A stretch of DNA of 64,000 nucleotides. Source: Candidatus Woesebacteria bacterium. GTDB lineage: Bacteria > Patescibacteriota > Microgenomatia > UBA8517. Shown piece after piece: positions 3,799 to 34,271 of this stretch. A program made the position numbers and the translations under genes. Position 1 is the first letter of the stretch, and each line of letters begins with the position of its first letter. The stretch lies in contig JAGVAE010000002.1 of assembly GCA_020060565.1 (NCBI GenBank), positions 85,036-149,035 on the forward strand, in the 5' to 3' direction. The notes beneath the pieces are model-generated. The model did no database searches and was not told the origin of the DNA. It was given only the letters and a program-made list of their open reading frames with translations.

Positions 3799-5305
3799 TC
3801 AATCATTACAATATATTATTTATGCTAGAAAGTCGCAGGAAAATAAAGATAGGCAGGTGTTATCCATCGATTCCCAGATAACCGAGCTTCGTGAATTTGC
3901 TGACAAAAACAATCTCAATGTAGTTAAAGAATTTCAAGAAAGTCAGACTGCGTACAAAATTGGAAGACCTATTTTTGCAGAAATGATGGAACTTATTGAA
4001 ATGGGGGTTGCCAATGCAGTTTTAGTTTGGAAACCAGACAGACTTGCTAGAAACGCTATTGATGGAGGGAGGATCATACAGTCAATGGATGACAACTTAC
4101 TTCAAGAAATAAGAACTCCTTATGAAATTTTTCGACAAACAGACAATCGAATGATCGTTTACATATATTTTGGGATGAGCAATGACTATTCAAGACAAAT
4201 TAGTGCAAATGTAAAAAGGGGAAATAGGGAAAAATATAGACGCGGTGAATTTGTAGGAAAAGCACTTCTCGGTTATTTAAATGCTGATGTTGGAAATTCC
4301 AAAAATATAATTTTAGATCCACCTAAATCACAAATAGTGAAAAAACTTTTTGAAGAATACTCGGCAGGATTGTACTCGGTCATTGATATGGTCAAAAAGG
4401 CCGATGTATTGGGATTAAAAGGTATTTACGGAAATCCAATTGCCAAAAGTGGGATGTACAAACTTCTGAAAAATACAGCCTATTATGGTCTGTACAAACA
4501 CGGAGGAGAATATCATCAGGGAAGTTATGAACCTCTAATTTCGATAGATTTATTTAACAAAGTGCAGGATGTGCTAAAAAGTAAAGGGAAACCGAGAAAA
4601 TTTGGTTGGATAAATCACGCTTACAAAGCTAGATTGATTAAATGCGGTGAATGTGGGTGTTCAGTTACAGCTGAAACAAAGAGGAAATTTTATAAGACAA
4701 CAGGTAGGACAGGAATTTACACTTACTATCATTGTACAAAAAGGAGAGGTAAATGTTCGCAAAAGCCAGTATCTGAAGAGGAGATGGAGCAGATGTTGAG
4801 GAAATATGTTTACCGGATAGAGATAGATAAAGAGGTGTGGAATTTGGGCATTGAGTTGTTGAAGGCTAAACATAGTGGTGAGATAAAACAGTCAATTCTA
4901 AGTCGAAGGTTGATAGAAAAAGATTATGAAAAAGTTGACAGAGAACTAGAAAAACTTCTACAGCTTCGAATAGATCAAGAGATCACGGCAGAGGAGTACT
5001 CATCGAGTAAAAAAACACTAATGGATAAAAAGTTGTTAATTAAAGAAAAATTGGGTGATAGGGAACAAACCTCTAACAATTGGTTGGAACTTGCTGAAAA
5101 CTTCTTTGAAACTGCACTTCAGGCACGGAAAATTATGGAAGGTACGGATTTGCAAAGAAAGAGGGATTTGATTCAATCGGTCGGTTGGAACCTCCTTTTG
5201 AAGGATAAAAAACTCGATTTTAGCTTCAAAAAGCCCTATGACATACTACTAAAACCTGATGCACGTACTTCCGTGCAGAGGGGGAGGGATTTGAACCCTC
5301 GATAA
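3791..5305 (+). CDS. Large serine recombinase (integrase).
   Basis: N-terminal resolvase motif YARKSQENKDRQVLSIDSQ with a catalytic Ser, a recombinase domain, and a zinc-ribbon CGECGC...YYHC plus coiled-coil C-terminus. The 3' end overlaps tRNA-Ser(GGA) by 30 nt. Confidence 0.8.
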   Translation: MNNQSLQYIIYARKSQENKDRQVLSIDSQITELREFADKNNLNVVKEFQESQTAYKIGRPIFAEMMELIEMGVANAVLVWKPDRLARNAIDGGRIIQSMDDNLLQEIRTPYEIFRQTDNRMIVYIYFGMSNDYSRQISANVKRGNREKYRRGEFVGKALLGYLNADVGNSKNIILDPPKSQIVKKLFEEYSAGLYSVIDMVKKADVLGLKGIYGNPIAKSGMYKLLKNTAYYGLYKHGGEYHQGSYEPLISIDLFNKVQDVLKSKGKPRKFGWINHAYKARLIKCGECGCSVTAETKRKFYKTTGRTGIYTYYHCTKRRGKCSQKPVSEEEMEQMLRKYVYRIEIDKEVWNLGIELLKAKHSGEIKQSILSRRLIEKDYEKVDRELEKLLQLRIDQEITAEEYSSSKKTLMDKKLLIKEKLGDREQTSNNWLELAENFFETALQARKIMEGTDLQRKRDLIQSVGWNLLLKDKKLDFSFKKPYDILLKPDARTSVQRGRDLNPR

Positions 5306-6564: not shown

Positions 6565-7143
6565 TTATTTATTCCCAGGCAATTTCTTAGAAACCCAGTT
6601 CGTAACTTTATCAAGTCCTGAGGCAGGTATTTCCTCAAATGGTATATAGGCAGAAATCTCATGCTTCAAACTATCTTTAATTTCAGGATTAATCATTACT
6701 TCAATTCTCCCTGGCATTAAAAATGTTTCAAAAATTAAGATTTCGCTTCCCGATCTTTCTCCAAACCAAAAACGAGACATTGCCTGCCACTCAGTTAGCT
6801 TACCTGCAATTTTTACTCCTTTAGACGTTATTTTATATTCAACATTCTCTGGCGGGACAGTTGAAAGAATGTAGTATAAAAATACTAAAGCTACAATCAA
6901 AATTACTGGCATTATTCCTTCTGCAAGAAAAAGAATCAGACTGATTATACCCGCAATTGCAAAAATTGTTGTATAAAACTGTCTGTCACGCCTCTTAAAT
7001 GGCCTTGCTGGTGCAATCCAAGTAAGAAGTTCACGCTCAGGTTCACGCCTGACAACCACAGCTTGCGGCTCAGAATTTAATGTACTTTCGGAACTAGATT
7101 TTTGATCTGTGGCAGGATCCATAATACGCGTATTATACCTCAA
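6565..7143 (-). CDS. Hypothetical membrane protein with two TM helices.
   Basis: 192-aa ORF containing hydrophobic segments FAIAGIISLILF and VILIVALVFLYYIL. No motif assigned. Confidence 0.4.
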   Translation of the reverse strand: MRYNTRIMDPATDQKSSSESTLNSEPQAVVVRREPERELLTWIAPARPFKRRDRQFYTTIFAIAGIISLILFLAEGIMPVILIVALVFLYYILSTVPPENVEYKITSKGVKIAGKLTEWQAMSRFWFGERSGSEILIFETFLMPGRIEVMINPEIKDSLKHEISAYIPFEEIPASGLDKVTNWVSKKLPGNK

Positions 7144-14147: not shown

Positions 14148-14540
14148 ATGAAGAAGTTTATATTTAGTATTATTTTTGTTTCTGCATTTATATTTTTGAA
14201 TACTTTGATTTCGCCAAAGGTCTCTATGGCTGCTGATGTTCATGGGGGCTGTGGAGATACAGAGATTGATACAGCCATTGGCTGTGTTCCTGTATTGGGT
14301 GATGGAACAAGTGATTTTATGACTTTTATTCTTAGGTGGGCAATTGGTGTTGGGGGTGGAATTGCTTTTCTTTTGATTCTTTATGCAGGTTTTATGACAA
14401 TGACTTCAGCAGGTAATCCAGAAAGACTTAAGGCGGGGCAAGAATTATTAACAAGTGCCATCTCTGGTCTGATTCTTTTGATATTGTCCGTATTTGTTCT
14501 AAACTTTATAGGAATCAATATTTTAGGTATATTTACATAA
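14148..14540 (+). CDS. VirB2/TrbC-like propilin candidate, paralog 1; the only one with a classical signal peptide.
   Basis: 130 aa. Signal peptide (…PKVSMA), a Cys pair, then TM1, loop TSAGNPERLKAGQELLTSAISG and TM2. Confidence 0.5.
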   Translation: MKKFIFSIIFVSAFIFLNTLISPKVSMAADVHGGCGDTEIDTAIGCVPVLGDGTSDFMTFILRWAIGVGGGIAFLLILYAGFMTMTSAGNPERLKAGQELLTSAISGLILLILSVFVLNFIGINILGIFT

Positions 14541-14873
14541 ATGAAAATAGCATTAGAGAGTCCTTATAAAGGTATTAGCGTTCCTTCAAGTGGTGGAAAA
14601 ATAAATGTAAACGAAACTGATATTGGAGGTATTATTACTGGAGTTTTGCCATATATCTTTGGTGCAGCTGCAATTTTACTTTTAATTTATTTAGTTACAG
14701 CAGGTCTTTCCATGATGCTTTCTCGGGGAGAACCAAAAACAATGCAGGCAGCACAAGCAAAAATAACCAATGCTTTGATCGGATTTGTTATTGTATTTTT
14801 TGCGTTTTCTTTAGTACTTCTTGTTGGAAATATTCTTGGAGTTAATGTTTTTGAAGACATATTTAAAAAATAA
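14541..14873 (+). CDS. VirB2/TrbC-like propilin candidate, paralog 2.
   Basis: 110 aa. ~40-aa leader, then TM1, loop SRGEPKTMQAAQAKITNALIG and TM2. Abuts paralog 1 (TAAATG). Confidence 0.5.
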   Translation: MKIALESPYKGISVPSSGGKINVNETDIGGIITGVLPYIFGAAAILLLIYLVTAGLSMMLSRGEPKTMQAAQAKITNALIGFVIVFFAFSLVLLVGNILGVNVFEDIFKK

Positions 14874-15193
14874 TGAAAAATCTTGCATTAAATATTAAGG
14901 ATTCTTTTTTTGGTAATCAGGGAGCGTCTTCTTTTCAAACAATTACTGGGGTTTCTGATATTGTTTCTTTATTTCTCAAAATTTCTTTTGTCCTGGCAGG
15001 TTTAATTCTTCTTTTCTATTTTATCTTGGGTGGAATTGGAATGATTGGGAGTGCTGGAAAAAATGATCCAAAAGCGGCTGAACAGGCCAAGCAAACCATA
15101 ACATCGGCTGTTATTGGGTTTGTTGTTGTGTTTGTAGCCTATTGGATAGTAAAATTGATTGGAATATTGTTTAATATTCCAAATATTATTTAA
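14873..15193 (+). CDS. VirB2/TrbC-like propilin candidate, paralog 3.
   Basis: 106 aa. Loop SAGKNDPKAAEQAKQTITSAVIG between two TM helices. ATGA overlap with paralog 2. Confidence 0.5.
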   Translation: MKNLALNIKDSFFGNQGASSFQTITGVSDIVSLFLKISFVLAGLILLFYFILGGIGMIGSAGKNDPKAAEQAKQTITSAVIGFVVVFVAYWIVKLIGILFNIPNII

Positions 15194-15547
15194 ATGCAAA
15201 AACTACTCGCAGATAATGTCTTTGGCACAATTAAAGCACCAGATTCTGCATTTAAGGACAGTGCTACTCCCCAAGCAGCCATTGGAAACTTAATTCAGCT
15301 TGTAATCTGGATTCTTATAATTGGCGCTGGGATCTATGCATTGTTTAATTTGGTTTTGGCTGGCTATTCTTTTATGTCAGCAGGAGATGATAGTAAAAAA
15401 GTTAGTGGAGCCTGGGCTATGATTTATCAAACAATGATCGGCTTGGCTGTTGCTGCAGGATCCTTTGTGCTGGCAGCCATCTTTGGACAGTTGATATTTG
15501 GCAAATGGGATTTTATCCTTAACCCAACAATTCCAACATTACAATAA
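15194..15547 (+). CDS. VirB2/TrbC-like propilin candidate, paralog 4.
   Basis: 117 aa. Loop SAGDDSKKVSGAWAMIYQTMIG between two TM helices. Confidence 0.45.
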   Translation: MQKLLADNVFGTIKAPDSAFKDSATPQAAIGNLIQLVIWILIIGAGIYALFNLVLAGYSFMSAGDDSKKVSGAWAMIYQTMIGLAVAAGSFVLAAIFGQLIFGKWDFILNPTIPTLQ

Positions 15548-15548
15548 A

Positions 15549-15923
15549 ATGAATAATTTACTGACAGATATTAAATTGGCACCAGAGAGTGGTTTTAGGG
15601 GTTTTGGTCAGTTGGGACTTGAAGGTTTAAGTGAAGAAAGTGCGGGTACGACATTCAACACCTTTGTTTCAACTGCCATAGGTGTAATGACCATCATTGC
15701 TTTTGTGTGGTTTGTTTTTACACTTTTTGTTGGGGCTTACGGATTTATGACTGCAGGAGGGGATAAACAGGCTCTCGAGTCTGCAAAGAAAAAAATAACT
15801 ACAGGAATAATAGGTGTCGTTATTGTAATTGCCGCCATTTTCATATTCCAACTTGTGGGGTATATACTTGGAATACCAAATATTCTTAATCCTGGGGAAA
15901 TGATTAGACAAATCAGTCAATAA
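15549..15923 (+). CDS. VirB2/TrbC-like propilin candidate, paralog 5.
   Basis: Start at MNNLLTDIK, 1 nt after the stop of paralog 4. Loop TAGGDKQALESAKKKITTGIIG. Confidence 0.5.
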   Translation: MNNLLTDIKLAPESGFRGFGQLGLEGLSEESAGTTFNTFVSTAIGVMTIIAFVWFVFTLFVGAYGFMTAGGDKQALESAKKKITTGIIGVVIVIAAIFIFQLVGYILGIPNILNPGEMIRQISQ

Positions 15924-15924
15924 T

Positions 15925-16326
15925 ATGTTTATTACAAACCTTCTATTAGCACAGGGCGATATCCCTGAGGGGTGGAATGGCCCAGCAAAAGGATCTGAAA
16001 TAAAAAACCCCGCTTTAGGAAACACCTTAAACGGACTTCTTCAAGAGGGTGGTTCCGCGTTTTTTGGAACCCTAATACCAAATCTTATTGGAATCTGTTA
16101 TGTAATTGGGGTAGTTATCTTTCTTTTTATGCTTATTACAGGTGCTATTCAATGGATAAGCTCCGGTGGAGACAAACAAGCATTAGAGTCAGCAAGGAAT
16201 AAAATATCAAATGCTTTGGTAGGAATTGTAATTTTGTTTGCTGTGTTTGCAATTATAAATCTAATTGAAACGTTTTTTGGTATAAATATTATGACCCTTG
16301 ACATGGGGGCTTTAGTAATTCAATAA
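15925..16326 (+). CDS. VirB2/TrbC-like propilin candidate, paralog 6.
   Basis: 133 aa. Loop SSGGDKQALESARNKISNALVG between two TM helices. Confidence 0.5.
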   Translation: MFITNLLLAQGDIPEGWNGPAKGSEIKNPALGNTLNGLLQEGGSAFFGTLIPNLIGICYVIGVVIFLFMLITGAIQWISSGGDKQALESARNKISNALVGIVILFAVFAIINLIETFFGINIMTLDMGALVIQ

Positions 16327-16336
16327 TATAAATGTA

Positions 16337-16675
16337 ATGAATAATTTGCTTGCGGAAACAATTAATTTAAAGCCACAATCAGGTGATTTTGTGGGAATAT
16401 CTAATTTTACACTCCCCTCAATTATTTCTGCTCTTATAAAAGGAGCTATGGTTATTGCTGCTATTATCTTCTTCTTTATGTTGGTTATTGGAGGAATTAA
16501 ATGGATTGCTTCAGGTGGTGACAAAGCTCAAACAGAAGCAGCCAGGAATCAAATTACTGCAGCTCTTGTGGGTTTGGTAATAGTCTTTGCTGCTTGGGCA
16601 ATAGTTTCTCTTATAGCCACATTCTTTGGAGGGGTTAATATCTTTAATCTTACAATTCCTGAAATTGGTAATTAG
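16337..16675 (+). CDS. VirB2/TrbC-like propilin candidate, paralog 7.
   Basis: 112 aa. MNNLLAETI leader. Loop ASGGDKAQTEAARNQITAALVG. Confidence 0.5.
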   Translation: MNNLLAETINLKPQSGDFVGISNFTLPSIISALIKGAMVIAAIIFFFMLVIGGIKWIASGGDKAQTEAARNQITAALVGLVIVFAAWAIVSLIATFFGGVNIFNLTIPEIGN

Positions 16676-23269: not shown

Positions 23270-23885
23270 ACAACAAAGGATGGTGGATCAGACTTTTCAA
23301 AAAAGCCGTTCGAGTGAAGAAAAGCTAGAACTAGATCAATGTCTATACGCAGAGAAAAACATTCCGATTATAAAAGCGAGACTTGACGAGCTTATTAAAA
23401 ATATCAACACTTCTGTTTTCGACAATAAGGGCTCTGTAATACCATGGAAAGTAACTATTGGTAAAAGCCCTCGTTCACATAATGAGGGAGGGAACTCTAT
23501 ATATGAATATGGGGAAGGATACGGTATTGTTGGTGGCCACGATGTTTTTGATGGTTGGTTTCTCACCAGAGAGCAGGACACTGAACTCAAAGTTGGCAGC
23601 CTATTCCAATTACAAATCAAGTTAATTTTTCCACTTACCGAAACAAACACTGCAGGTCAAATTAATAGACACTCCAATAAATATTTTTCCATTTTTGGTT
23701 TTATGTCTGGAGATTTGTTCCACAATCACGAAAGCGGAACTTTTTACAGGAGCTATAGCAGCCTTTCAATTCATAGAAATTTCTACTTAGATAATCCAAA
23801 CGAACTCGTAGCGGAATTTGGTAACAAATTAAAAGAGGAATTGTTAGGACTTAACGATTTTCAGAACCATTCTCCAAAAAATTAA
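23205..23885 (+). CDS. Hypothetical protein.
   Basis: ORF 23166..23885 with internal start MEFDKIK. Would overlap the 5' end of the divergent 700-aa ORF unless that gene starts later. Confidence 0.25.
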   Translation: MEFDKIKTAVANFFDRNEKLAIQQRMVDQTFQKSRSSEEKLELDQCLYAEKNIPIIKARLDELIKNINTSVFDNKGSVIPWKVTIGKSPRSHNEGGNSIYEYGEGYGIVGGHDVFDGWFLTREQDTELKVGSLFQLQIKLIFPLTETNTAGQINRHSNKYFSIFGFMSGDLFHNHESGTFYRSYSSLSIHRNFYLDNPNELVAEFGNKLKEELLGLNDFQNHSPKN

Positions 23886-24341
23886 CAAGAAATGAAGGGT
23901 TTGTACTTGTGAAAAGGGGTGTCCATTGCAATAAAACAGTAAGCTATTTGAATATATCTTTCCCCAATTCTTTGGCTTGATCAAGAAAAAAATCTTCCAT
24001 CTTTTTTCTATCCTGTTAAACGGATAATAATTAAAATCCACTTTTAGCTCCCCATCTGGAAAAAATAATGTATACGTATGAAGCCCTAAAAATTGGCGGT
24101 GAATAATTTTCTTAACGAACATTTTACTACCAACAATACCAATAAACTTGTTTATGCTAGGTAAATGAATTTCTTGGTTTTCTGAAAACAGATCAATATC
24201 GTGAGACTCTCTATGTTTTAAGTAAAATTCTGAAAGAACGGTTCCACCTGTCAAATAAAACCGTTTTAATAAATAGGGTTCTTTTAGGACAAATTCGAGA
24301 AATTCTTGCTGATGCTTATCGAGGATGGTTTTGTTCCCCAT
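23844..24341 (-). pseudogene. AbiEii/DUF1814-like nucleotidyltransferase, probably truncated or frameshifted.
   Basis: The N-terminus KRFYLTGGTVLSEFYLKHRESHDIDLF matches the AbiEii GGTAL…R.SxDIDf motif. Reading continues in another frame (MEDFFLDQAKELGKDIFK*) across an A7 homopolymer near 23990, and the total length is far below the family norm. Confidence 0.35.
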
Positions 24342-24633
24342 ATTAGGTATTCAAAATATTCTTTGGTCTTTTCGTCAATTTTCTTATTTATATATTTCCA
24401 GGAATTTTTAACCTCTGAGAGGGAAATTTTCTCTCCATCTAAACCGTAATTTATCATTTGTGTTAGTCTCCAGAGTTTATATTCCTTGGGACTATTTTTC
24501 TTAAATTTTACCTCATCGGTGGACCAATTAATCATGACTAATTATATCATTTTTGCTGTGAAAAGGGATTCTTATTGCACAAGTTGCTTCACGTTGTAAT
24601 CTTAACCTAGAGTAGACAACTTCTACTGCCCAT

Positions 24634-25674
24634 ATGGAACAACACGCAATACCACAAAACGTAAGTTCATATCAATTTAAGTTGGTTGGGGATATGACTC
24701 TTAAGCAGTTTTTTCAACTTGCTGGAGGAATTTTAGTTGGAGTAATTTTTTATTCTGCTCCCTTACTTGGAATTATTAAATGGCCTTTGGCAATTCTTTC
24801 TGTTCTTTTAGGGGTTGGGCTTGCTTTTCTCCCTCTTGAGGAGCGTCCCTTGGAAAAGTGGATTTTTGCTTTTTTTCGTGCAATATATGCTCCCACCCTT
24901 TTTAATTGGAAAAAGGCTTTATCTCCTCCTAAATTTTTTCAGGATGAACCAGCGGGTTCCACTCCCGAACAAGATGCTGCTCTTAAGGGTTATCTGACAA
25001 CAACCAATCAAGCCTCTGGTGCTTCTGCAAATTTGGATAAAGCTGAAATTGGTTTTTTTTCAAAGCTTGCTGGACTTTTAACAGGAACTATCAGTGTTAT
25101 TCCTTCTGCCAAACCTGCTACTCCAACTGAGGCTACTTCTCAAAAGCCAGTTGAGTTGAAAGTACCAGAAAATGCTCCAGTTAGAATTCAAACAGGTGCA
25201 TCACATTTAGTGGTTGAGGAAAAACCAAAGATTGCTACTGTCCAAAACCAAGTCACTGTTAATGCTGTTGCCCCAATTGTAGCGGGAGATGAAATGATTT
25301 CTACAAAACAGGCAATTTTTTCAGTTGATGCAGCCCCACCCAATCCCCCAACTATACCCAATGTGGTTGTGGGACAAGTGGTTGATCAAGACAGAAAAAT
25401 TATTGAGGGGGCAATAATGGAAATACGAGACTCAATGGGAAGACCAATAAGAGCCTTAAGGAGTAATCGTGTGGGACATTTTCTTACAGTCACACAGCTT
25501 GATAATGGACACTACGAAATAATTACAGATAAAGATGGTTATGAGTTTGTTGCGGTTTCTTTTGATGCAAATGGTGCCTTGATTCCTCCAATTTTAGTTC
25601 AAGGAAAAAGATTGGGACCAGTGGTTGAGGATATTCCCGTTGGAATTGTTAAACCAGCCTATTCAATAAATTAA
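24634..25674 (+). CDS. PrgI/VirB3-like membrane protein with a long C-terminal extension.
   Basis: The N-terminus IPQNVSSYQFKLVGDMTLKQFFQLAGGILVGVIFY plus two TM helices matches the PrgI-family pattern, and the gene sits directly upstream of VirB4. Confidence 0.45.
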   Translation: MEQHAIPQNVSSYQFKLVGDMTLKQFFQLAGGILVGVIFYSAPLLGIIKWPLAILSVLLGVGLAFLPLEERPLEKWIFAFFRAIYAPTLFNWKKALSPPKFFQDEPAGSTPEQDAALKGYLTTTNQASGASANLDKAEIGFFSKLAGLLTGTISVIPSAKPATPTEATSQKPVELKVPENAPVRIQTGASHLVVEEKPKIATVQNQVTVNAVAPIVAGDEMISTKQAIFSVDAAPPNPPTIPNVVVGQVVDQDRKIIEGAIMEIRDSMGRPIRALRSNRVGHFLTVTQLDNGHYEIITDKDGYEFVAVSFDANGALIPPILVQGKRLGPVVEDIPVGIVKPAYSIN

Positions 25675-25675
25675 A

Positions 25676-26392
25676 ATGAAACCAAAACTTAACAGTTTAA
25701 ATATTCCCAAGATTCCGTATTTAAGTGTTCCTGACAAACCTATTGTTTCAACCTCTCAGAACCACTTACCAATTGCGGATGTTACCAATGATGTTGTTCT
25801 TTATAAAGATGGTGGGGCTGCTCTTGTTATGGAATCTACATCACTAAACTTTGGCCTTTTAAGTGAAAAGGAGCAAGGAGCCGTCATTGCGGCCTATGCT
25901 GCAATGATTAATTCTCTTTCTTTTTCGATACAAATATTAGTTCGAACTCAAAGGAAAGATATAAGTTCATACATAAGTTATATTGATGAACAAGCTAAAA
26001 AACTAACACATCCCCTTCTTCAAAAATTAATGGCTGAGTATAAAGGATTTATCTTAGATTCTGTTAAAAAGAAAAACGTTTTAGGAAAAAGATTTTTTGT
26101 AATTCTCTATCTTTCCCCACTTGAACTTGGAGTTGGAAAATCATTGGCCGTTGTCACAAAACGAGGAGTTACACTTCCTTTTTCCAAATCCTATGTTATT
26201 AAAAAAACAAAAATAACACTTTATCCAAGACGGGATCATCTTATAAGACAAGCTGGCAGACTTGGAATTAAATTTAGACAACTTACCACCAACGAGCTTA
26301 TTGATCTTTTCTATACCGTCTATAATCCTGAACATCCAGCAGTTAAAAAAGAACCTGAAGTAATATTAGAAAGGAGAGAGTCCAGTGGATAA
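25676..26392 (+). CDS. VirB4/TrbE N-terminal domain encoded as a separate ORF.
   Basis: IADVTNDVVLYKDGGAALVMESTSLNFGLLSEKEQGAVIAAYAAMINSLSFSIQILVRTQRKD…YISYI and RFFVILYLSP follow the CagE_TrbE_VirB N-terminal consensus. The stop overlaps the next ORF by 8 nt. Confidence 0.55.
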   Translation: MKPKLNSLNIPKIPYLSVPDKPIVSTSQNHLPIADVTNDVVLYKDGGAALVMESTSLNFGLLSEKEQGAVIAAYAAMINSLSFSIQILVRTQRKDISSYISYIDEQAKKLTHPLLQKLMAEYKGFILDSVKKKNVLGKRFFVILYLSPLELGVGKSLAVVTKRGVTLPFSKSYVIKKTKITLYPRRDHLIRQAGRLGIKFRQLTTNELIDLFYTVYNPEHPAVKKEPEVILERRESSG

Positions 26393-28229
26393 CAATACAA
26401 AACCAATAGTCCAAGCACCAACCCAGCCATCTAGCCATCCAACCATTCAACCTTCACCTCAGTCTGAGGTAAAACCCAAGATTGTAAGTCCTGTGGCGGC
26501 TGTTGATGGGGGAGCTAGTGTAATTGATGTCATAGCTCCCCAAGCGATTGAGCAAGATTTTGATTATTTTAAAATTAATGATGTTTATTTCAGAACCATC
26601 TTTGTAGGGGGCTATCCAAGGTTTGTTGCTCCTGGTTGGTTGGAACCCGTTGTTAATTTTGACTCCTCCTTGGATATTTCTTTCTATGTTTATCCAGTTG
26701 ATGGAAAAACAGTACTTGATGATCTAAGACACAAGATTGCAGAGATGGAGGCGGAAATCTCAACAGACATAGAACGTGGAAGAATAGTGGATCCTTCCAC
26801 CCAAGCCAAGCTTGAAGATGCAAGGAGCCTTCAGGAACAACTAGTTAAAGGAATTGAAAGATTTTATGAGTTTAGTTTCTATATAACCATTCCCGCCAAC
26901 AATCTTGAGGAATTAAACCATGTTACAAAACAAATTGAATCTCAACTTGGATCTCTTTTAATTGTCAGTAAGCATGCACTTCTTGATCAGGAGTCGGGTT
27001 TTCTTTCAACTGCTCCTTTTGGAATGGATAGGTTAAATATTACAAGAAACATGGATACGACTTCTGTTGCTACAACTTTTCCTCTAACTTCAACCGAACT
27101 TTCCAGTGACCGCGGTGTTCTTTACGGAATAAACTCTCAAAATGAGTCTTTTATTATTTTTGATAGATTTTCTTTGGAGAATGCCAACATGACAATTTTT
27201 GCCACCTCTGGTGCAGGTAAATCTTATTTTGTAAAACTGGAGGCAGTTCGCTCCCTCATGATTGGAACTGAGGTAATAATAATTGATCCTGAAAGTGAAT
27301 ATAAACCATTAACACAAGCAGTTGGGGGCGAATATATTTCATTTTCTTTCAACTCTCCTGCCAAAATCAATCCTTTTGATTTGGCACAAATTAGAGAAGA
27401 AGGAGAAAACCAATTGGGTCAAAAGATTCTTTCCCTTCACTCTCTCATGAAAGTTATCATGGGTGCAATCACTCCCACCCAAGAAGCCCTTCTTGATCGC
27501 GCCCTTATCATGACCTATCGCAATAAAGGAATAACAATGGACCCAGATACACAGTCCAAAGAACCCCCACTAATGGAAGATCTTTATAAAACCCTAATTG
27601 GTATGGAGGTTCCTGATGCTTTAGACCTTGCTGCTCGGCTTGAGAAATTTGTAAGAGGGTCATTTGTGGGAATATTTGATAAACAAACAAATATAAATAT
27701 TAACAATCCTTTTACTGTTTTTTCTATTAAAGATTTACAGGACGCACTACGTCCCATCGCCATGTTTACAATTCTTGATTACATTTGGACAAGGGTTAAA
27801 AAAGACCTCAAGAAACGCATCTTAATCGCCGAAGAGGCCTGGCAAATGATGAAGTACCCCGATACCTCAGCCTTTTTGTGGAGTGTTGTTAAAAGGGCAC
27901 GTAAATATTATTTGGGCTTAACTACAATTACTCAGGATGTTGAAGACTTTTTAAGCCAGGATATTGGAAAAGCCATTGTTACAAATAGTTCCATGCAAGT
28001 ACTTCTTAAACAATCTCCTGCTGCAATTGATAAGATTGCGGAAGTTTTTTATTTGAGTCAGGGGGAAAAACAATTATTACTTGCTGCAAATGTTGGAGAG
28101 GGAATTTTCTTTGCAGGACCACACCATGCTCCAATTAGAGTTATTGCTAGTGAGGATGAAAATAAATTGATCACAACCAAACCACAAGAAATGATGATGA
28201 TAAATCCAAATGCATATGAGGCAAAATAA
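26385..28229 (+). CDS. VirB4/TraC-family T4SS ATPase (C-terminal ATPase part), GTG start.
   Basis: Walker A FATSGAGKSYFVK and Walker B RILIAEEAWQMM. The middle region DYFKINDVYFRTIFVGGYPRFVAPGWL is typical of VirB4. Confidence 0.8.
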   Translation: MDNNTKPIVQAPTQPSSHPTIQPSPQSEVKPKIVSPVAAVDGGASVIDVIAPQAIEQDFDYFKINDVYFRTIFVGGYPRFVAPGWLEPVVNFDSSLDISFYVYPVDGKTVLDDLRHKIAEMEAEISTDIERGRIVDPSTQAKLEDARSLQEQLVKGIERFYEFSFYITIPANNLEELNHVTKQIESQLGSLLIVSKHALLDQESGFLSTAPFGMDRLNITRNMDTTSVATTFPLTSTELSSDRGVLYGINSQNESFIIFDRFSLENANMTIFATSGAGKSYFVKLEAVRSLMIGTEVIIIDPESEYKPLTQAVGGEYISFSFNSPAKINPFDLAQIREEGENQLGQKILSLHSLMKVIMGAITPTQEALLDRALIMTYRNKGITMDPDTQSKEPPLMEDLYKTLIGMEVPDALDLAARLEKFVRGSFVGIFDKQTNININNPFTVFSIKDLQDALRPIAMFTILDYIWTRVKKDLKKRILIAEEAWQMMKYPDTSAFLWSVVKRARKYYLGLTTITQDVEDFLSQDIGKAIVTNSSMQVLLKQSPAAIDKIAEVFYLSQGEKQLLLAANVGEGIFFAGPHHAPIRVIASEDENKLITTKPQEMMMINPNAYEAK

Positions 28230-28231
28230 GT

Positions 28232-30973
28232 ATGGTAAAATATTATTCCCCACCAGAAACTCTTGAAACAGACCGTGACTCTTTAGAAAGCCTAATTAAA
28301 TCAACTGAATACGCTTTTAAGGGAGATTTGTTTGGTGGGAGCGAAACCAACCTTTCTCTTTCTCAACCTTTTACCTCTCCCGACGGTAAGTATCGCTGGC
28401 AAAGTGTAAAAGATTTCTTTATTTATATTACAGACTTAACAAAAACTGGAAACATTAAAGTGGCAAACGCTGTTCTTTACGACAATCTTGCCAAAGCGCC
28501 AAAATATGTTGAATTTAAAGGAGCTGAAAAATCCCCTGTTGACCAAACACTTCCACAAAAAGGAATTCTTGAACAGTTTGAAAAGGAGATGGAGACAAAA
28601 GAGGCCGGAAGGAAAAAGGTTGTTGAAGAATCTGATAGACAAGTCCGAGCAGCAATAGAAAAACAAAAAGAAGTATATAAAGCAACTATTCAGGAACAAA
28701 TAAAACAAGCAAAAGAGGCTGAAGTCAATCTTAAAGGTAAAAAGATATATGTAAAAGTTGAAGATCCTGATATTGAACAAGTACCTGAAGTTAAAAGCTT
28801 AAAAGAACAGGCAGAGGTAGATCCTAAAAAATTTATTGAGGATGCATCAAAAGAATTTGGTAAAAACCCAAACATTAAAGATTTATCTATTGATGAACAA
28901 ATGGCTGCAGCAAAACAAGCTTCTCTTACAAGCTACGAGGTATTGACTAACAATTCTCCACTCGTCCAAGCAGCTGTTATTAACAAAGTTGCCTCAGACC
29001 CTAATACTAAAAATTATTTAGAGAATGCCGCAGCCTCTCTAGTCAATCAAAAAATGTCCCAACTTGAGCTAAGTAAGGTGTTTTTTGATTCATCAAAAAT
29101 AGATGGACACAAAAATATCAACGATATCAATGTCGAGATTTCCTATACCCCAAAGCCTGGATTTAAAGAATACGACTTAAACGAACAGATAATTAGACCC
29201 CACCTTGAAAACTTGAACCATCAAAATCTTTTAGTTGACACTTTTAAAGATTTTAGTGAAGGGGAAATAAAATCGCGTATTTTACTAGGAATTGGTGGTC
29301 GAATAGAAGCTCATGTTGCAAAACTTCCTGCGGGGAGTCTAGTTGCCAAAGCATATAGGTCAGACGTGGTTCAACTAGGAATGTCTTCCATGGGTTTTGT
29401 TAGAGCTGTTCCTGTTGCTGCGGTTGAAGGATCTATTGTGGGAGAAGTTATTACCGCTTCTGGGTTAGGGAACGCTGCTTTGGTTGTTCAAGCTAAAACA
29501 GGTATAAATTTAGGTGTTAAGTTGGCTGCCAAAACTAGTGCAGAAACTGCAGTTAAGGTTGGTGTTGAAACCACTGTCAAAGCAGGCGTTTCAACTGCAG
29601 CAAAAACAGGGTTTAAAGGACTACTAGCAAAAATTGGAACTTCTCTTTTTGGAACAGCTGCTGGCGGACCGATAGGATTCATCGCTACTTGGATTGGCAC
29701 AGATGTTTTATTAAAACTTGTCGAAAAAATCCCTTGGGGAAAAATTAAAAAGTTTGGTGTAGCAATTGCCTCTTTTATTGTGGGCGTCCCAATGCTTGCA
29801 ATAGGACTTACAATGGCCAACGCTCCTTTGACACTTGGCGGTTTTGGTTTAACAGCTTTTGGTGCTGCTTCTGCAAAAGGACTTACATTAGCTGGAACTG
29901 TTGGTGGAGCATTTAAATTGTTTGGTGTGATTGGAACAGCAACCCTGGGAGCAATCGGGGGACCCATACTTTCTTTTTTGATTGGTTTTCCATTAGTTGT
30001 TGCCTTGATTTTGTTTATAATAAATTCTGGAGCCTATGTTGTTCCTGAATCCTCTTTGTCTTATTCAAAGGGACAAGATAATCCATATTTGTCTGTAACG
30101 AAAGAGGCAAACCCCGGAAAAATAAGTAATCCTTCAGGAAACCAACCTGTCTCATTTACTGTTTCAGTTACTGCCACCAAAACTACACTTACCAACGTAA
30201 AAATTGAATCTACATCTTGTAATGTAATCAAAAAAGATGGGTCGAATGTTGGGTGTCCTTTAGAGAATATTCAAGAATTACCTGCAGATTTAAAACTTTC
30301 GCCAGGAAACCCTTATGTTTTTGATTTTTCTGTGGATTTTGGATCAAACCTTTCAGATTCGTTAGTTTTTGATTCCATTAAGATTAGTGCAGACTCAGAC
30401 GAACAAAAAGGTATTACAACTTCGGGGTCAGAAACCGTCTGTGTGGGAGAGTGTCCAGTTGATTGTGTTAAAGTTGAAGACAACGCAATGCCCTGGCCAG
30501 GAAATCTGCGAGCAAATCTTGAAGCCGCCGTTGCCTCTCTTTCTGGAGGTCACCCTGGCTTTATAGCAAAAGTGTGTAGTAACAATAAAGAAGTAAACCT
30601 TTGTTATAATCCCCCACAAATAAGTGAGGGGTATTTTGCGTGGCATATACATACTGATAGCTGTGATGTTGTTTTTAATCAAAAAGGTCTACAAAGTGAA
30701 AAGGATGCTCTTTTCTTGGTAACTCACGAATTAACACACCATATCCAAAAAATAGTTGGTGGTAGTGTTCAGGAATATTTAGATTCAGGGGGTTTTAGGG
30801 AATTGGCAGGGGAGGGTTTTTGTACTTACAAAGACACTGCTAATGATGTTTACGAGTCCATGGCTGAAGCCTTAGGTCTTTATGCATCAATTCCTTCATG
30901 GGGAGGGTGTGCAGCCAACTACAGAACCAAGTATCCAAGAAATTATGTTTTTGCAGAAGGTTTTATGAAGTAA
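28232..30973 (+). CDS. Large protein with an N-terminal charged/coiled-coil region, a central Gly/Ala-rich membrane region and a C-terminal HExxH zincin-like domain.
   Basis: 913 aa. Glycine-zipper-like hydrophobic block from about residue 380 to 600. Near the C-terminus, LVTHELTHHIQK carries the HExxH motif, within a Cys-containing region (CVGECPVDC…). Confidence 0.45.
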   Translation: MVKYYSPPETLETDRDSLESLIKSTEYAFKGDLFGGSETNLSLSQPFTSPDGKYRWQSVKDFFIYITDLTKTGNIKVANAVLYDNLAKAPKYVEFKGAEKSPVDQTLPQKGILEQFEKEMETKEAGRKKVVEESDRQVRAAIEKQKEVYKATIQEQIKQAKEAEVNLKGKKIYVKVEDPDIEQVPEVKSLKEQAEVDPKKFIEDASKEFGKNPNIKDLSIDEQMAAAKQASLTSYEVLTNNSPLVQAAVINKVASDPNTKNYLENAAASLVNQKMSQLELSKVFFDSSKIDGHKNINDINVEISYTPKPGFKEYDLNEQIIRPHLENLNHQNLLVDTFKDFSEGEIKSRILLGIGGRIEAHVAKLPAGSLVAKAYRSDVVQLGMSSMGFVRAVPVAAVEGSIVGEVITASGLGNAALVVQAKTGINLGVKLAAKTSAETAVKVGVETTVKAGVSTAAKTGFKGLLAKIGTSLFGTAAGGPIGFIATWIGTDVLLKLVEKIPWGKIKKFGVAIASFIVGVPMLAIGLTMANAPLTLGGFGLTAFGAASAKGLTLAGTVGGAFKLFGVIGTATLGAIGGPILSFLIGFPLVVALILFIINSGAYVVPESSLSYSKGQDNPYLSVTKEANPGKISNPSGNQPVSFTVSVTATKTTLTNVKIESTSCNVIKKDGSNVGCPLENIQELPADLKLSPGNPYVFDFSVDFGSNLSDSLVFDSIKISADSDEQKGITTSGSETVCVGECPVDCVKVEDNAMPWPGNLRANLEAAVASLSGGHPGFIAKVCSNNKEVNLCYNPPQISEGYFAWHIHTDSCDVVFNQKGLQSEKDALFLVTHELTHHIQKIVGGSVQEYLDSGGFRELAGEGFCTYKDTANDVYESMAEALGLYASIPSWGGCAANYRTKYPRNYVFAEGFMK

Positions 30974-31574: not shown

Positions 31575-32690
31575 CTAGTTTTGAATTCTAACTGGCATTA
31601 TTAGATGGAGATAATCTGGATCTGTTGAATCTGTAAAAACACCAGCTTTATCCATTGTTGTAAATTCCATTTTTACCTCATCCCCCACTACTGAGTGAAG
31701 GAACTCTTCTAAAAATCTATAGTTAAATGAAATTTCAAAATCTTTTATTTCTCCTTCAATTTTTGCCTCAACTTGGGTTTCTTGACTTCCCGAGGAACTA
31801 CTTTCCGCAAGAACCTTTACTGAGTCTTTAGAAAGTTTCAATTTAACAATATTGGCTGCTTCTCTTGCAAAAATAGATGCGAGCTTAACCGCTCTTAAAA
31901 ATTCTTCTTTATCAAGTCTTACTGAAATTTGTGAGCTTTTTGGAATAATCTTTTCAAAATCAGGATATTCCCCTTCCAAAATTTTGGATGACAAAACAAC
32001 ATCCCCAAGTCCAAAAATAACCTGTTTTTCTTTTTCTTGTATTTCAAACTGAATTTCTGATATCTCATCTGTTGATCTCCCCAATTCCGAAAGGATTCCT
32101 TTGGGTATTACGATTTTTTGCAAACTTTTCTGGTTTTTTTGTGAATCTATTCTTATTTTCTTTTTTGATAACCTAAATCCATCAGTAGCAACTAAAAACA
32201 AATCGTTTTTATCTATTATTACAAGTACACCAGTAAGGATTGGTCTTGTTTCATCTGTACTTGTTGCAAAAATTACTTGAGAAAGTGATTCTACCAACTC
32301 TTTCTTTGGTAACACAAACGGATTAGTTAATATGTTTGGAATTTTTGGAAAATCCGAGGCATTCATTCCTAATACTTTTGATGTAAATCCTGAGGTTGAT
32401 ATTTTTAATTGTTCCTTTTCAGATTCCAATAAGACAGTTTCTTTGGAAAGATTGTTTACTAGGTCTGAAATTACTTTTGAAGGAATGCTTATTTCTCCTT
32501 CTTCTTCTATCTTTGCTCCAATCTGTGTAACCACTGATATTTCCAAATTTGTCGAAGATATCGTAAGTTTCGTTTTGGTTGCTTTTAAAAGAATGTTTCC
32601 AAGTATTGGGAGTTGAGATCTAACACTTACGAATCTGGAGGCTTGGGTAACTGCTTTTGCTAAGTTTTCTTGTAGTACGTTTAATTTCAT
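31575..32690 (-). CDS. dnaN: DNA polymerase III beta subunit (sliding clamp).
   Basis: 371 aa. MKLNVLQENLAKAV…LPILGNILL is typical of DnaN, and the gene is adjacent to dnaA. Confidence 0.9.
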   Translation of the reverse strand: MKLNVLQENLAKAVTQASRFVSVRSQLPILGNILLKATKTKLTISSTNLEISVVTQIGAKIEEEGEISIPSKVISDLVNNLSKETVLLESEKEQLKISTSGFTSKVLGMNASDFPKIPNILTNPFVLPKKELVESLSQVIFATSTDETRPILTGVLVIIDKNDLFLVATDGFRLSKKKIRIDSQKNQKSLQKIVIPKGILSELGRSTDEISEIQFEIQEKEKQVIFGLGDVVLSSKILEGEYPDFEKIIPKSSQISVRLDKEEFLRAVKLASIFAREAANIVKLKLSKDSVKVLAESSSSGSQETQVEAKIEGEIKDFEISFNYRFLEEFLHSVVGDEVKMEFTTMDKAGVFTDSTDPDYLHLIMPVRIQN

Positions 32691-32897: not shown

Positions 32898-34271
32898 TCA
32901 TATCCCCAATTTGATCTTTGATATATCCTCACGAATATGCACATCTGTTGTGGCTAGTTCTGTAATCTTACCCACAGCGTGCATAACAGTAGTATGGTCG
33001 CGTCCTCCAACCAACCTTCCAACTTCTTCAAGAGGGATTCCTAAATGAGTTCTTAGTAAGTACATAAGAATTTGTCTGGGTCTAGCAACGGGTCTTGCCC
33101 GTGAATCTCCAAGAAGGGACCTCTTGCCTATTTGATAGTAACTTGAAACTGCCTCAACAACCTCTGAAGGGTCTTTTTTTACTATTTTTCCGTTTGTTTC
33201 GATTCCCTTTCCTAAAACTGACTCTATAAGTTCGTTGCTAATTTCTAAGTGTTTAAGTTTTATCTCAGTCATAAGTTTGATAAGTACACCCTCAATTTTT
33301 CTAGCAGAATCGATATTTCCTGCAATCATTTGAATGTGTTCCATTTCAAGAACAATTCCTTTCTCTTTTGCTTTAATTTGGGTAATTGCACACCTAAGTT
33401 CAAAGTCGGGAGGTGCAATGTCTACAATTAAACCTGCTTCAAAGCGGCTCCTAAGACGTTCTTCAAGGCGTGCAATTTCACTTGGTTGTCTATCACTTGT
33501 AAGAATTACTTGTCCCCCAGCGGCTGTTACAGTATTGAATGTATGGAAAAACTCTTCTTGTACAGCGTCTTTACCTGCAATGAACTGGATATCATCAATT
33601 AACAGAAGATCTAGTTTTCTATATTTATCCCTGAAGCTTTGTGTAGTTTTGTTTCTAATACCCTCAATAATATCGTTTGTAAAACTCTCTCCAGTACAGA
33701 GTAAAACTTTAAGGCTAGAGTTCTTTTTAAGAGCGGAGTTTCCCACTGCACCCATTAAATGGGTTTTACCTACCCCTACCCCGCCCCAAATAAAAAGTGG
33801 GTTGTATGCACTTCCTAAACTGTCAGACACCGCAAGGGCTGCGGCATGTGCCATTTGATTTGAACCCGATACTGCAAAGTTTTCAAAATTGAAATTAGGT
33901 CTTATTTTGGCTCTATTTAAAACTTCCAATAGATTCTCGTTTTTTTCATCCTTTTTACCTTCTGATTGGAAAAGGGGAGAAATATTTAATTCTTTTACCA
34001 CGCCCTTTTCTGGGTTCTCTTTGATTACAAATACAACATCACAAGGCTTACCAATTACTTTAGAAATCGAATCTTGTATTAAACCAAAATATCTTGATTC
34101 AATTGTACTTTTTACAAAAAGCGAAGAACAGCCTACCTCAACAAGCATTCTCTCCCCCATCTCTTGAGCCTTTGCTAAATGGGTTTGAGAAAACCAAGTA
34201 GAAAAAATTGCAGGAGAGACGGAAACCTTTACAATCTCTAATGTATCCTTCCAAGAAGATTTGTTATCCAT
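32898..34271 (-). CDS. dnaA: Chromosomal replication initiator DnaA.
   Basis: Walker A GGVGVGKTHLMGAVGN, AAA+ motifs and a C-terminal DNA-binding domain. Confidence 0.9.
   Translation of the reverse strand: MDNKSSWKDTLEIVKVSVSPAIFSTWFSQTHLAKAQEMGERMLVEVGCSSLFVKSTIESRYFGLIQDSISKVIGKPCDVVFVIKENPEKGVVKELNISPLFQSEGKKDEKNENLLEVLNRAKIRPNFNFENFAVSGSNQMAHAAALAVSDSLGSAYNPLFIWGGVGVGKTHLMGAVGNSALKKNSSLKVLLCTGESFTNDIIEGIRNKTTQSFRDKYRKLDLLLIDDIQFIAGKDAVQEEFFHTFNTVTAAGGQVILTSDRQPSEIARLEERLRSRFEAGLIVDIAPPDFELRCAITQIKAKEKGIVLEMEHIQMIAGNIDSARKIEGVLIKLMTEIKLKHLEISNELIESVLGKGIETNGKIVKKDPSEVVEAVSSYYQIGKRSLLGDSRARPVARPRQILMYLLRTHLGIPLEEVGRLVGGRDHTTVMHAVGKITELATTDVHIREDISKIKLGI

Follow-up and report, generated by a model that had tools for sequence, protein, structure and literature searches.

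The VirB4 ATPase of type IV secretion systems (T4SSs) is encoded in some systems by one gene and in others by two, the shorter of which specifies a protein called TrsD. Here the split form is described for a Candidatus Woesebacteria bacterium, in a stretch of 64,000 nucleotides (nt) of contig JAGVAE010000002.1 that is referred to below as the window, and in which two overlapping open reading frames (ORFs), ORF1 and ORF2, take the places of trsD and virB4. The closest known counterparts are the conjugative plasmids pGO1 and pSK41 of staphylococci (MPF_FATA class), with the pair TrsD/TraD and TrsE/TraE; the gene order in pSK41 of Staphylococcus aureus is that of the window, i.e., a small VirB3-like gene followed by the genes for TrsD (227 amino acids, aa) and for the VirB4-like protein TraE (672 aa). 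TraE of pSK41 is 25% identical to the ORF2 product over 613 aa, and ORF2 residue 47 meets TraE residue 35, so that the break points are equivalent. The two loci differ in that the pSK41 genes are separated by a 14-nt gap, whereas those in the window overlap by 8 nt, and in the Walker B motif of TraE, which has DE. Moreover, pSK41 is a conjugative plasmid with a relaxase and a coupling protein, while the window locus is chromosomal and adjoins dnaN and dnaA.

Other plasmids extend this comparison. In the C. botulinum plasmid pCBG, a gene for PrgI (93 aa) precedes those for a 'TraC family protein' of 257 aa and for an ATP-binding protein of 620 aa, with an overlap of 11 nt, and both pBMB68 from B. 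thuringiensis and a Pontibacillus plasmid have the same split layout as the window. Full-length VirB4 of the CD1110 type, or PrgJ, of Firmicutes elements belongs to the same ATPase family as ORF2 but has the N-terminal module in one chain; in a Priestia plasmid, the unsplit gene, for 802 aa, lies in the same place directly after prgI. In Firmicutes plasmids, the place behind prgI is thus occupied by a fused gene in some cases and by a split one in others. The VirB4 protein of R388, TrwK, is likewise a single chain of 823 aa; it belongs to a diderm system and is only about 12% identical to the ORF1 product. In the R388 structure, the N-terminal domain of VirB4 contacts VirB3 and the inner-membrane complex.

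For Patescibacteria, the split architecture is already known and has been catalogued in more than 2,000 genomes. A recent survey found 2,272 TrsD homologues in these bacteria, where TrsD is the most abundant T4SS component, and 1,664 of them are associated with VirB4 (Quinonero-Coronel et al., 2025; PMC12102498). In that study TrsD is a remote homologue of the N-terminal portion of VirB4, and VirB4 is not explicitly termed 'split'. The homology statement is taken from this source; the word TrsD is absent from the main text of Guglielmini et al. (2014), and a 2026 paper on ComB of H. pylori, in which both 'split' and 'VirB4' occur, has no bearing on it. The survey further reports that the TrsD homologue of Southlakia epibionticum is essential, that arrays of VirB2-like pilins are abundant in Microgenomatia and that dnaN and dnaA are commonly found near virB4 (PMC12102498). 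Of the features that the survey describes, the window shows a TrsD homologue beside VirB4, a PrgI/VirB3-like protein, a pilin-like array and dnaA/dnaN nearby.

The locus is best explained by a genuine and ancient fission of VirB4 in the whole T4SS lineage of Patescibacteria, shared with Gram-positive systems of the pSK41/pGO1 type; this explanation is given a probability of roughly 0.92. The split in the window is the family-wide, published TrsD plus VirB4 architecture and not a local event, which an earlier interpretation of the same DNA, the sequence-only reading, had missed. One of the options it had offered, a genuine fission with translational coupling, is borne out by the family-wide split and by the Shine–Dalgarno (SD) sequence and GTG start of ORF2. 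The elements concerned are the following.

25676..26392, forward strand: ORF1, ATG start, 238 aa; TrsD-like, the putative detached N-terminal module of VirB4, with a folded core at about aa 30-220
26385..28229, forward strand: ORF2, GTG start, 614 aa; CD1110-type VirB4 ATPase without the N-terminal module
26385..26392, forward strand: ORF1/ORF2 overlap of 8 nt, GTGGATAA, with the GTG of ORF2 and then the TAA stop of ORF1; translational-coupling junction
26372..26376, forward strand: SD-like AGGAG inside ORF1 at its 3′ end, spaced 8 nt from the GTG of ORF2 that follows
26400..26507, forward strand: Pro/Ser/Gln-rich low-complexity leader or linker, ORF2 aa 6-41, ahead of the first VirB4-conserved segment, VIDVIAPQAIE
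27198-27224, forward strand: Walker A motif FATSGAGKS, ORF2 aa 272-280, fitting GxxGxGK[ST]
27819-27842, forward strand: Walker B motif ILIAEEAW, ORF2 aa 479-486, with Glu in place of the usual Asp

Most of these elements agree with the sequence-only reading, which had already placed the two ORFs correctly and had given the GTG start, the +1 frame of ORF2 relative to ORF1, a total of about 850 aa (852 aa by count), the linker and both Walker motifs in ORF2. Its junction was right in length, but the string quoted for it, AGTGGATAA, is 9 nt long, while the overlap itself reads GTGGATAA.

The split is conserved among relatives. Every informative case among 31 genome loci from Microgenomates, Daviesbacteria, Saccharibacteria and Uhrbacteria (29-89% identity) shows the ORF1 homologue stopping ahead of the ATPase gene, and the same split is found in all informative cases but one among 80 metagenome loci. 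The comparison of orthologous loci for fused versus split genes, which had been proposed as a check, thereby yielded a set of 94 split junctions, i.e., the window's own and 93 from related loci; the fused exceptions are one locus and one database protein only. Protein lengths show the same, as the best 120 of 1,494 ORF1 homologues all have 225-242 aa and the best 120 of at least 7,998 ORF2 homologues all have 569-673 aa. In addition, among the 150 representatives of clusters at 50% identity that match ORF1 best, 149 lack the ATPase part. Given these homologue numbers from sequence searches, the feature is judged to be far beyond chance.

An independent assembly from another sequencing run (sample SRR22388156, locus L117), with a 97% identical protein, has the same stop, GTG, 8-nt overlap and AGGAG, and its differences from the window around the junction are silent. 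Between these two loci, the ratio of nonsynonymous to synonymous substitution rates (dN/dS) is 0.043 for ORF1 and 0.037 for ORF2 at a dS of about 0.6. Both genes are under strong purifying selection. The closest homologues of the pair stem from metagenome-assembled genomes (MAGs) of Patescibacteria, Microgenomates and Woesebacteria. Several public MAG records in which a trsD-virB4 pair of the Patescibacteria type occurs bear the titles 'uncultured Gammaproteobacteria', 'Candidatus Methylomirabilis' or 'Alphaproteobacteria' (L005, L008, L011, L023-L027, L030 and P0346); these contigs are probably mislabelled or mis-binned.

ORF2 is homologous to the ATPase part of VirB4. It scores 373.1 bits with the NCBIfam model NF045971 (CD1110 VirB4), above the curated cut-off of 325, and 101.5 bits with the Pfam family P-loop_TraG (cut-off 25.8). 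Its C-terminal half resembles the solved C-terminal domain of Thermoanaerobacter VirB4 (PDB 4ag5, E 5.7e-46). The match to NF045971 spans profile positions 183-735 of 752; since it opens at position 183, about 180 N-terminal positions are missing from ORF2. The homology of pSK41 TraE and of a fused database protein (P0151, see below) to ORF2 starts at ORF2 aa 40-47. The same 614-aa product with the GTG start has been called independently in NCBI and JGI records, whereas an exact-sequence look-up of ORF1 found no record.

The Walker B motif of ORF2 is unusual, with Glu for the Mg-coordinating Asp and Ala for the preceding Ile or Val. It was first seen in one of 81 loci, and the possibility that it is unique or an error was considered and rejected. 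The [A]EEAW form is common to 46 of the 120 closest ORF2 homologues, including the one from the independent assembly with 97% identity, and the Glu is therefore a real trait of a sub-clade. In 80 of 80 more distant related loci, the motif reads hhhhDEAW.

The identity of ORF1 is less obvious from sequence. The sequence-only reading had assigned it the 'canonical VirB4 N-terminal domain'; the link to the N-terminal module stands, but 'canonical' does not hold at the sequence level, given that there was no local Pfam or PDB hit. The local Pfam scan returned nothing even at E 10, although PF26593 may be absent from the local copy, and the PDB sequence search gave a chance hit only. PF26593 (TraC-like) is present in the precomputed annotation of 117 of the 120 listed ORF1 homologues, including P0001 with 97% identity. 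With the NCBIfam model NF041427 (TrsD/TraD), ORF1 scores 26.9 bits (E 3.8e-6) against a cut-off of 200, and is a remote TrsD relative below NCBI's threshold for membership. Profile-profile comparison by hhalign aligned the ORF1 family with the full length of pSK41 TrsD (95% probability, E 4e-8, 181 columns, aa 24-219 to aa 31-218) and with the small protein of pBMB68 (98%, E 1e-13).

Evidence that ORF1 corresponds to the part missing from ORF2 comes from several weaker lines taken together, i.e., NCBIfam profiles, profile-profile comparison, fold matches and rare fusions, which jointly point to VirB4. Firstly, ORF1 matches positions 105-234 of a full-length mycoplasma VirB4 model of NCBIfam (E 8e-6) and ORF2 covers positions 294-893 of the same model, so that the two are colinear and do not overlap. 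Secondly, an AlphaFold2 model of ORF1 (36-sequence alignment, mean predicted local distance difference test score of 77.5) was compared with the PDB using Foldseek. The 13 best matches are all R388 TrwK/VirB4 (PDB 7o42, 7o41, 8rtb and 8rtd), which is both the best and the only consistent structural match; the best E-value is 0.015, with a probability of 1.0, and the query-normalised template modelling scores are 0.45-0.49, which is modest. Thirdly, two natural fusions exist, namely the database representative P0151 (787 aa) and the metagenome locus L110 (about 796 aa). In these, an ORF1-like part (aa 4-201, 45% identity) is directly followed by an ORF2-like part (aa 203-768, 65% identity), the halves being joined by a connector of about 12 residues without the low-complexity linker. 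These fusions are the strongest evidence for ORF1 as the missing N-terminal module. They may have arisen by secondary re-fusion or may preserve the ancestral state.

Several points weigh against this assignment. The similarity of ORF1 to the N-termini of full-length VirB4 proteins is weak, and its NCBIfam hits lie far under the curated cut-offs. In hhalign, the ORF1 family reached only 16% (E 0.0016) with one full-length Priestia VirB4, although the weak alignment falls at the N-terminus (aa 22-90). Because of this result, the link to VirB4 rests on the NCBIfam profile, the fused homologues and the fold matches. For the latter, no Foldseek E-value is better than 0.015, which is marginal, and the aligned part of TrwK is not reported by the tools. 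We know of no TrsD for which physical interaction of the two products has been shown. According to the Patescibacteria survey, TrsD is without an assigned function, and TrsD homologues of Gracilibacteria are not beside virB4 (PMC12102498).

In another explanation, ORF1 would be an accessory T4SS protein that merely resembles the VirB4 N-terminus, ORF2 a naturally short VirB4 and TrsD a protein with a separate role. The weak similarity to full-length VirB4 would be in keeping with such a role, and so would the long disordered tails on many TrsD homologues, which are absent from canonical VirB4. It is nevertheless improbable, because the fused homologues keep the order and spacing of a normal VirB4, ORF1 and ORF2 match one profile colinearly without overlap, VirB4 is the only consistent fold match, and fused and split genes alternate after prgI in Firmicutes plasmids.

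A second alternative, still less probable, is a programmed +1 frameshift within the 7-codon overlap region, which would yield a fused, full-length VirB4 alone or beside the separate products. It had been among the options of the sequence-only reading and was rejected, given the lack of a slippery motif, the occurrence of all three frames among orthologues and the ORF2 SD and start. Two stops close the frame of ORF2 just 5 codons upstream of its GTG, and a change of frame is therefore possible only within 26370-26392. ORF2 does lie in the +1 frame, and either the AGGAG or the tandem AGG-AGA codons at this place could stimulate a shift. SD-like motifs are rare here: in a survey of the 20 nt ahead of longest-ORF starts, which are approximate start calls, a 4-5-mer of this kind was found for 3 of 35 long ORFs in the window. 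In E. coli, tandem AGG/AGA Arg codons induce +1 shifts if the matching tRNAs are in short supply.

However, no slippery site of the X XXY YYZ or CUU UGA type is present in 26370-26392. The AGGAG is separated by 10 nt from the last sense codon downstream of it, GGA (26387-26389), and by 13 nt from the stop, unlike the spacing of 3 nt in prfB. Among the Arg codons of the window, AGA (258 occurrences) and AGG (101) are used most and are thus not 'hungry'; the tandem AGG-AGA was rejected as a 'hungry codon' +1 site on this ground and because the motif is gone at 89% identity. The junction as a whole is not kept even in L001 (89% identity), where an ATGA overlap puts the genes in frame +2, or in L002 (80%), where the overlap is 11 nt. 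Over the 94 junctions, the frame of the ATPase gene with respect to the small gene is 0 in 25 cases, +1 in 31 and +2 in 38, and the genes overlap by as much as 56 nt or lie as far as 237 nt apart. ATGA-type overlaps of 4 nt and gaps of 0-30 nt are most frequent, and ATG starts are found within a few nt of the stop of the ORF1 homologue in relatives. The independent gene calls of NCBI and JGI, which give the 614-aa GTG product, also argue against a frameshift. AGGAG and GTG at a spacing of 8 nt form a conventional initiation signal of ORF2's own. Two of the three SD-like motifs from the survey are internal operon starts, i.e., those of ORF2 and of the 913-aa gene that follows it.

The last option of the sequence-only reading, that one normal virB4 gene was broken by a single-base error in sequencing or assembly, has a probability next to nil and was rejected: a 1-nt shift within 26370-26392 would formally join the frames, but the independent assembly carries the identical stop, GTG and 8-nt overlap, all 93 related junctions are split, in all three frame relations, and the protein lengths in both families are those of split genes, so that, with the low dN/dS, these sequence comparisons can be taken to exclude such an error as well as a decaying pseudogene.

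In the favoured explanation, ORF1 corresponds to the first, N-proximal module of VirB4 and ORF2 to the middle domain and the RecA-like ATPase domain, which are made as separate polypeptides from one operon with the order prgI (virB3), trsD, virB4 and the 913-aa gene. ORF2 initiates at the GTG at 26385, using the AGGAG inside the last codons of ORF1, and because of this embedding its translation is coupled to that of ORF1. The sequence data thus show two co-transcribed and tightly coupled genes, each with a start of its own, which are conserved and have homology to successive parts of VirB4. Such coupling would favour co-assembly in matched amounts. From the analogy with canonical VirB4, we infer that the 27-kDa TrsD-like product binds the 69-kDa ATPase non-covalently and replaces the N-proximal module. 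In R388, contacts with VirB3 and with the inner-membrane complex are made by the N-terminal domain of VirB4, and the TrsD-like subunit would accordingly connect the ATPase with the PrgI/VirB3-like membrane protein. The gene order, VirB3-like protein, N-terminal module and ATPase, is colinear with that of systems in which these parts are fused.

The regions flanking the break point vary among relatives. Many other Patescibacteria TrsD-like proteins carry a C-terminal tail rich in P, Q, T, S and A, with a total length of up to 715 aa (P0123-P0268; L037, L038, L040, L043, L044, L046, L049, L052-L054 and L057). The P/Q/T-rich tails reach about 500 aa and end in LPP[IL][PA]EI(K/T) in 34 of 150 representatives and in HPFVVEELxDDYG in 25 of 150. 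In the window, there is a short linker on ORF2 and not on the TrsD-like ORF1. Split VirB4 partners in many lineages (loci L033-L109) begin with a conserved head, M..LNLPFLKKK, followed by about 30 low-complexity residues and the first conserved segment; ORF2 of the window (MDNNTKPIVQ...) is without this head. The idea that the C-terminal LPPLPEI of long TrsD proteins equals VIAPQAIE of ORF2, which would put the break beyond the linker, was rejected, as the VirB4 partner in those loci keeps the region from ORF2 aa 42 onward, about 35 aa past its own start. In some Uhrbacteria-like loci, unusually long trsD-virB4 spacers (83-110 nt) contain heptamer tandem repeats, e.g., aattacgaattacgaattacg and aaatcccaaatctcaaatccc, at the following positions.

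L009, ~6643-6725: heptamer-repeat spacer
L010, ~6640-6728: heptamer-repeat spacer
L029, ~6640-6749: heptamer-repeat spacer
L030, ~5011-5100: heptamer-repeat spacer

It is conceivable, if rather doubtful, that the fission was accompanied by non-covalent tethering, in which disordered linkers and short terminal motifs re-join the halves. To our knowledge, such tethering has not been described for TrsD. If true, the N-terminal module could be supplied in a dose of its own or be exchanged without the ATPase, and in the sub-clade of the window this regulation might be combined with the altered Walker B motif (Asp to Glu).

The surrounding genes complete the picture of the locus.

24634..25674, forward strand: gene for a PrgI/VirB3-like membrane protein of 346 aa, with its stop 1 nt before the ORF1 ATG (TAAaATG)
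28232..30973, forward strand: next operon gene, 913 aa, starting 2 nt after the ORF2 stop, with hydrophobic segments at aa 505-603
14148..16675, forward strand: pilin-like small-gene array of about 7 tandem ORFs of 106-141 aa, upstream part of the same T4SS locus
31575-32690, reverse strand: dnaN
32898-34271, reverse strand: dnaA
35059-35898, forward strand: yidC

The spacings between the prgI-like gene, ORF1, ORF2 and the 913-aa ORF are +1, -8 and +2 nt, which is the signature of a translationally coupled operon. The N-terminal part of the PrgI-like protein matches Pfam PrgI with 29.3 bits (cut-off 27) and has two hydrophobic segments at aa 26-63. The protein is unusually long compared to the approximately 90-130 aa in plasmids, with a low-complexity middle and a weak CarboxypepD_reg-like (beta-sandwich) match in its C-terminal region (E 8.5e-4). 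The 913-aa ORF gave no match in Pfam and NCBIfam scans. Its middle (aa ~505-603) is hydrophobic and rich in Gly and Ala, and an HExxH motif (HELTH) at aa 832 (nt 30725) suggests that the C-terminal domain is metallopeptidase-like. This gene may be the counterpart of divergent genes for VirB6 or for peptidases that have been reported from Saccharibacteria, where they lie downstream of virB4.

In the pilin-like array, five of six ORFs tested match VirB2-like pilins of the Mbov_0395 family with E-values of 1e-7 to 4e-4, all below the curated cut-off. The array fits the divergent pilin arrays reported for Microgenomatia and Saccharimonadia. With dnaN, dnaA and yidC directly downstream of the T4SS operon, the locus lies beside a probable replication origin, the position of which was not settled by the GC-skew profile at the scale of the window. 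The operon, on the forward strand, converges on dnaN and would be transcribed head-on to the fork if the origin is upstream of dnaA. Just upstream of the T4SS operon, on the reverse strand, an 83-aa ORF (24284-24535) overlaps a 165-aa ORF (23844-24341). The latter covers no more than positions 11-69 of the AbiEii toxin profile, out of 238, and is probably a truncated nucleotidyltransferase of a type IV toxin-antitoxin system.

For annotation, these results mean that the junction is not to be flagged as a frameshift, pseudogene or assembly error, and that ORF1 is better named TrsD-like (VirB4 N-terminal module) than 'hypothetical'. Within VirB4, the place of the natural split corresponds to a domain boundary. 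For the epibiotic life of Patescibacteria, their T4SS is reportedly essential, and the separate N-terminal module would thus be a reasonable structural target.

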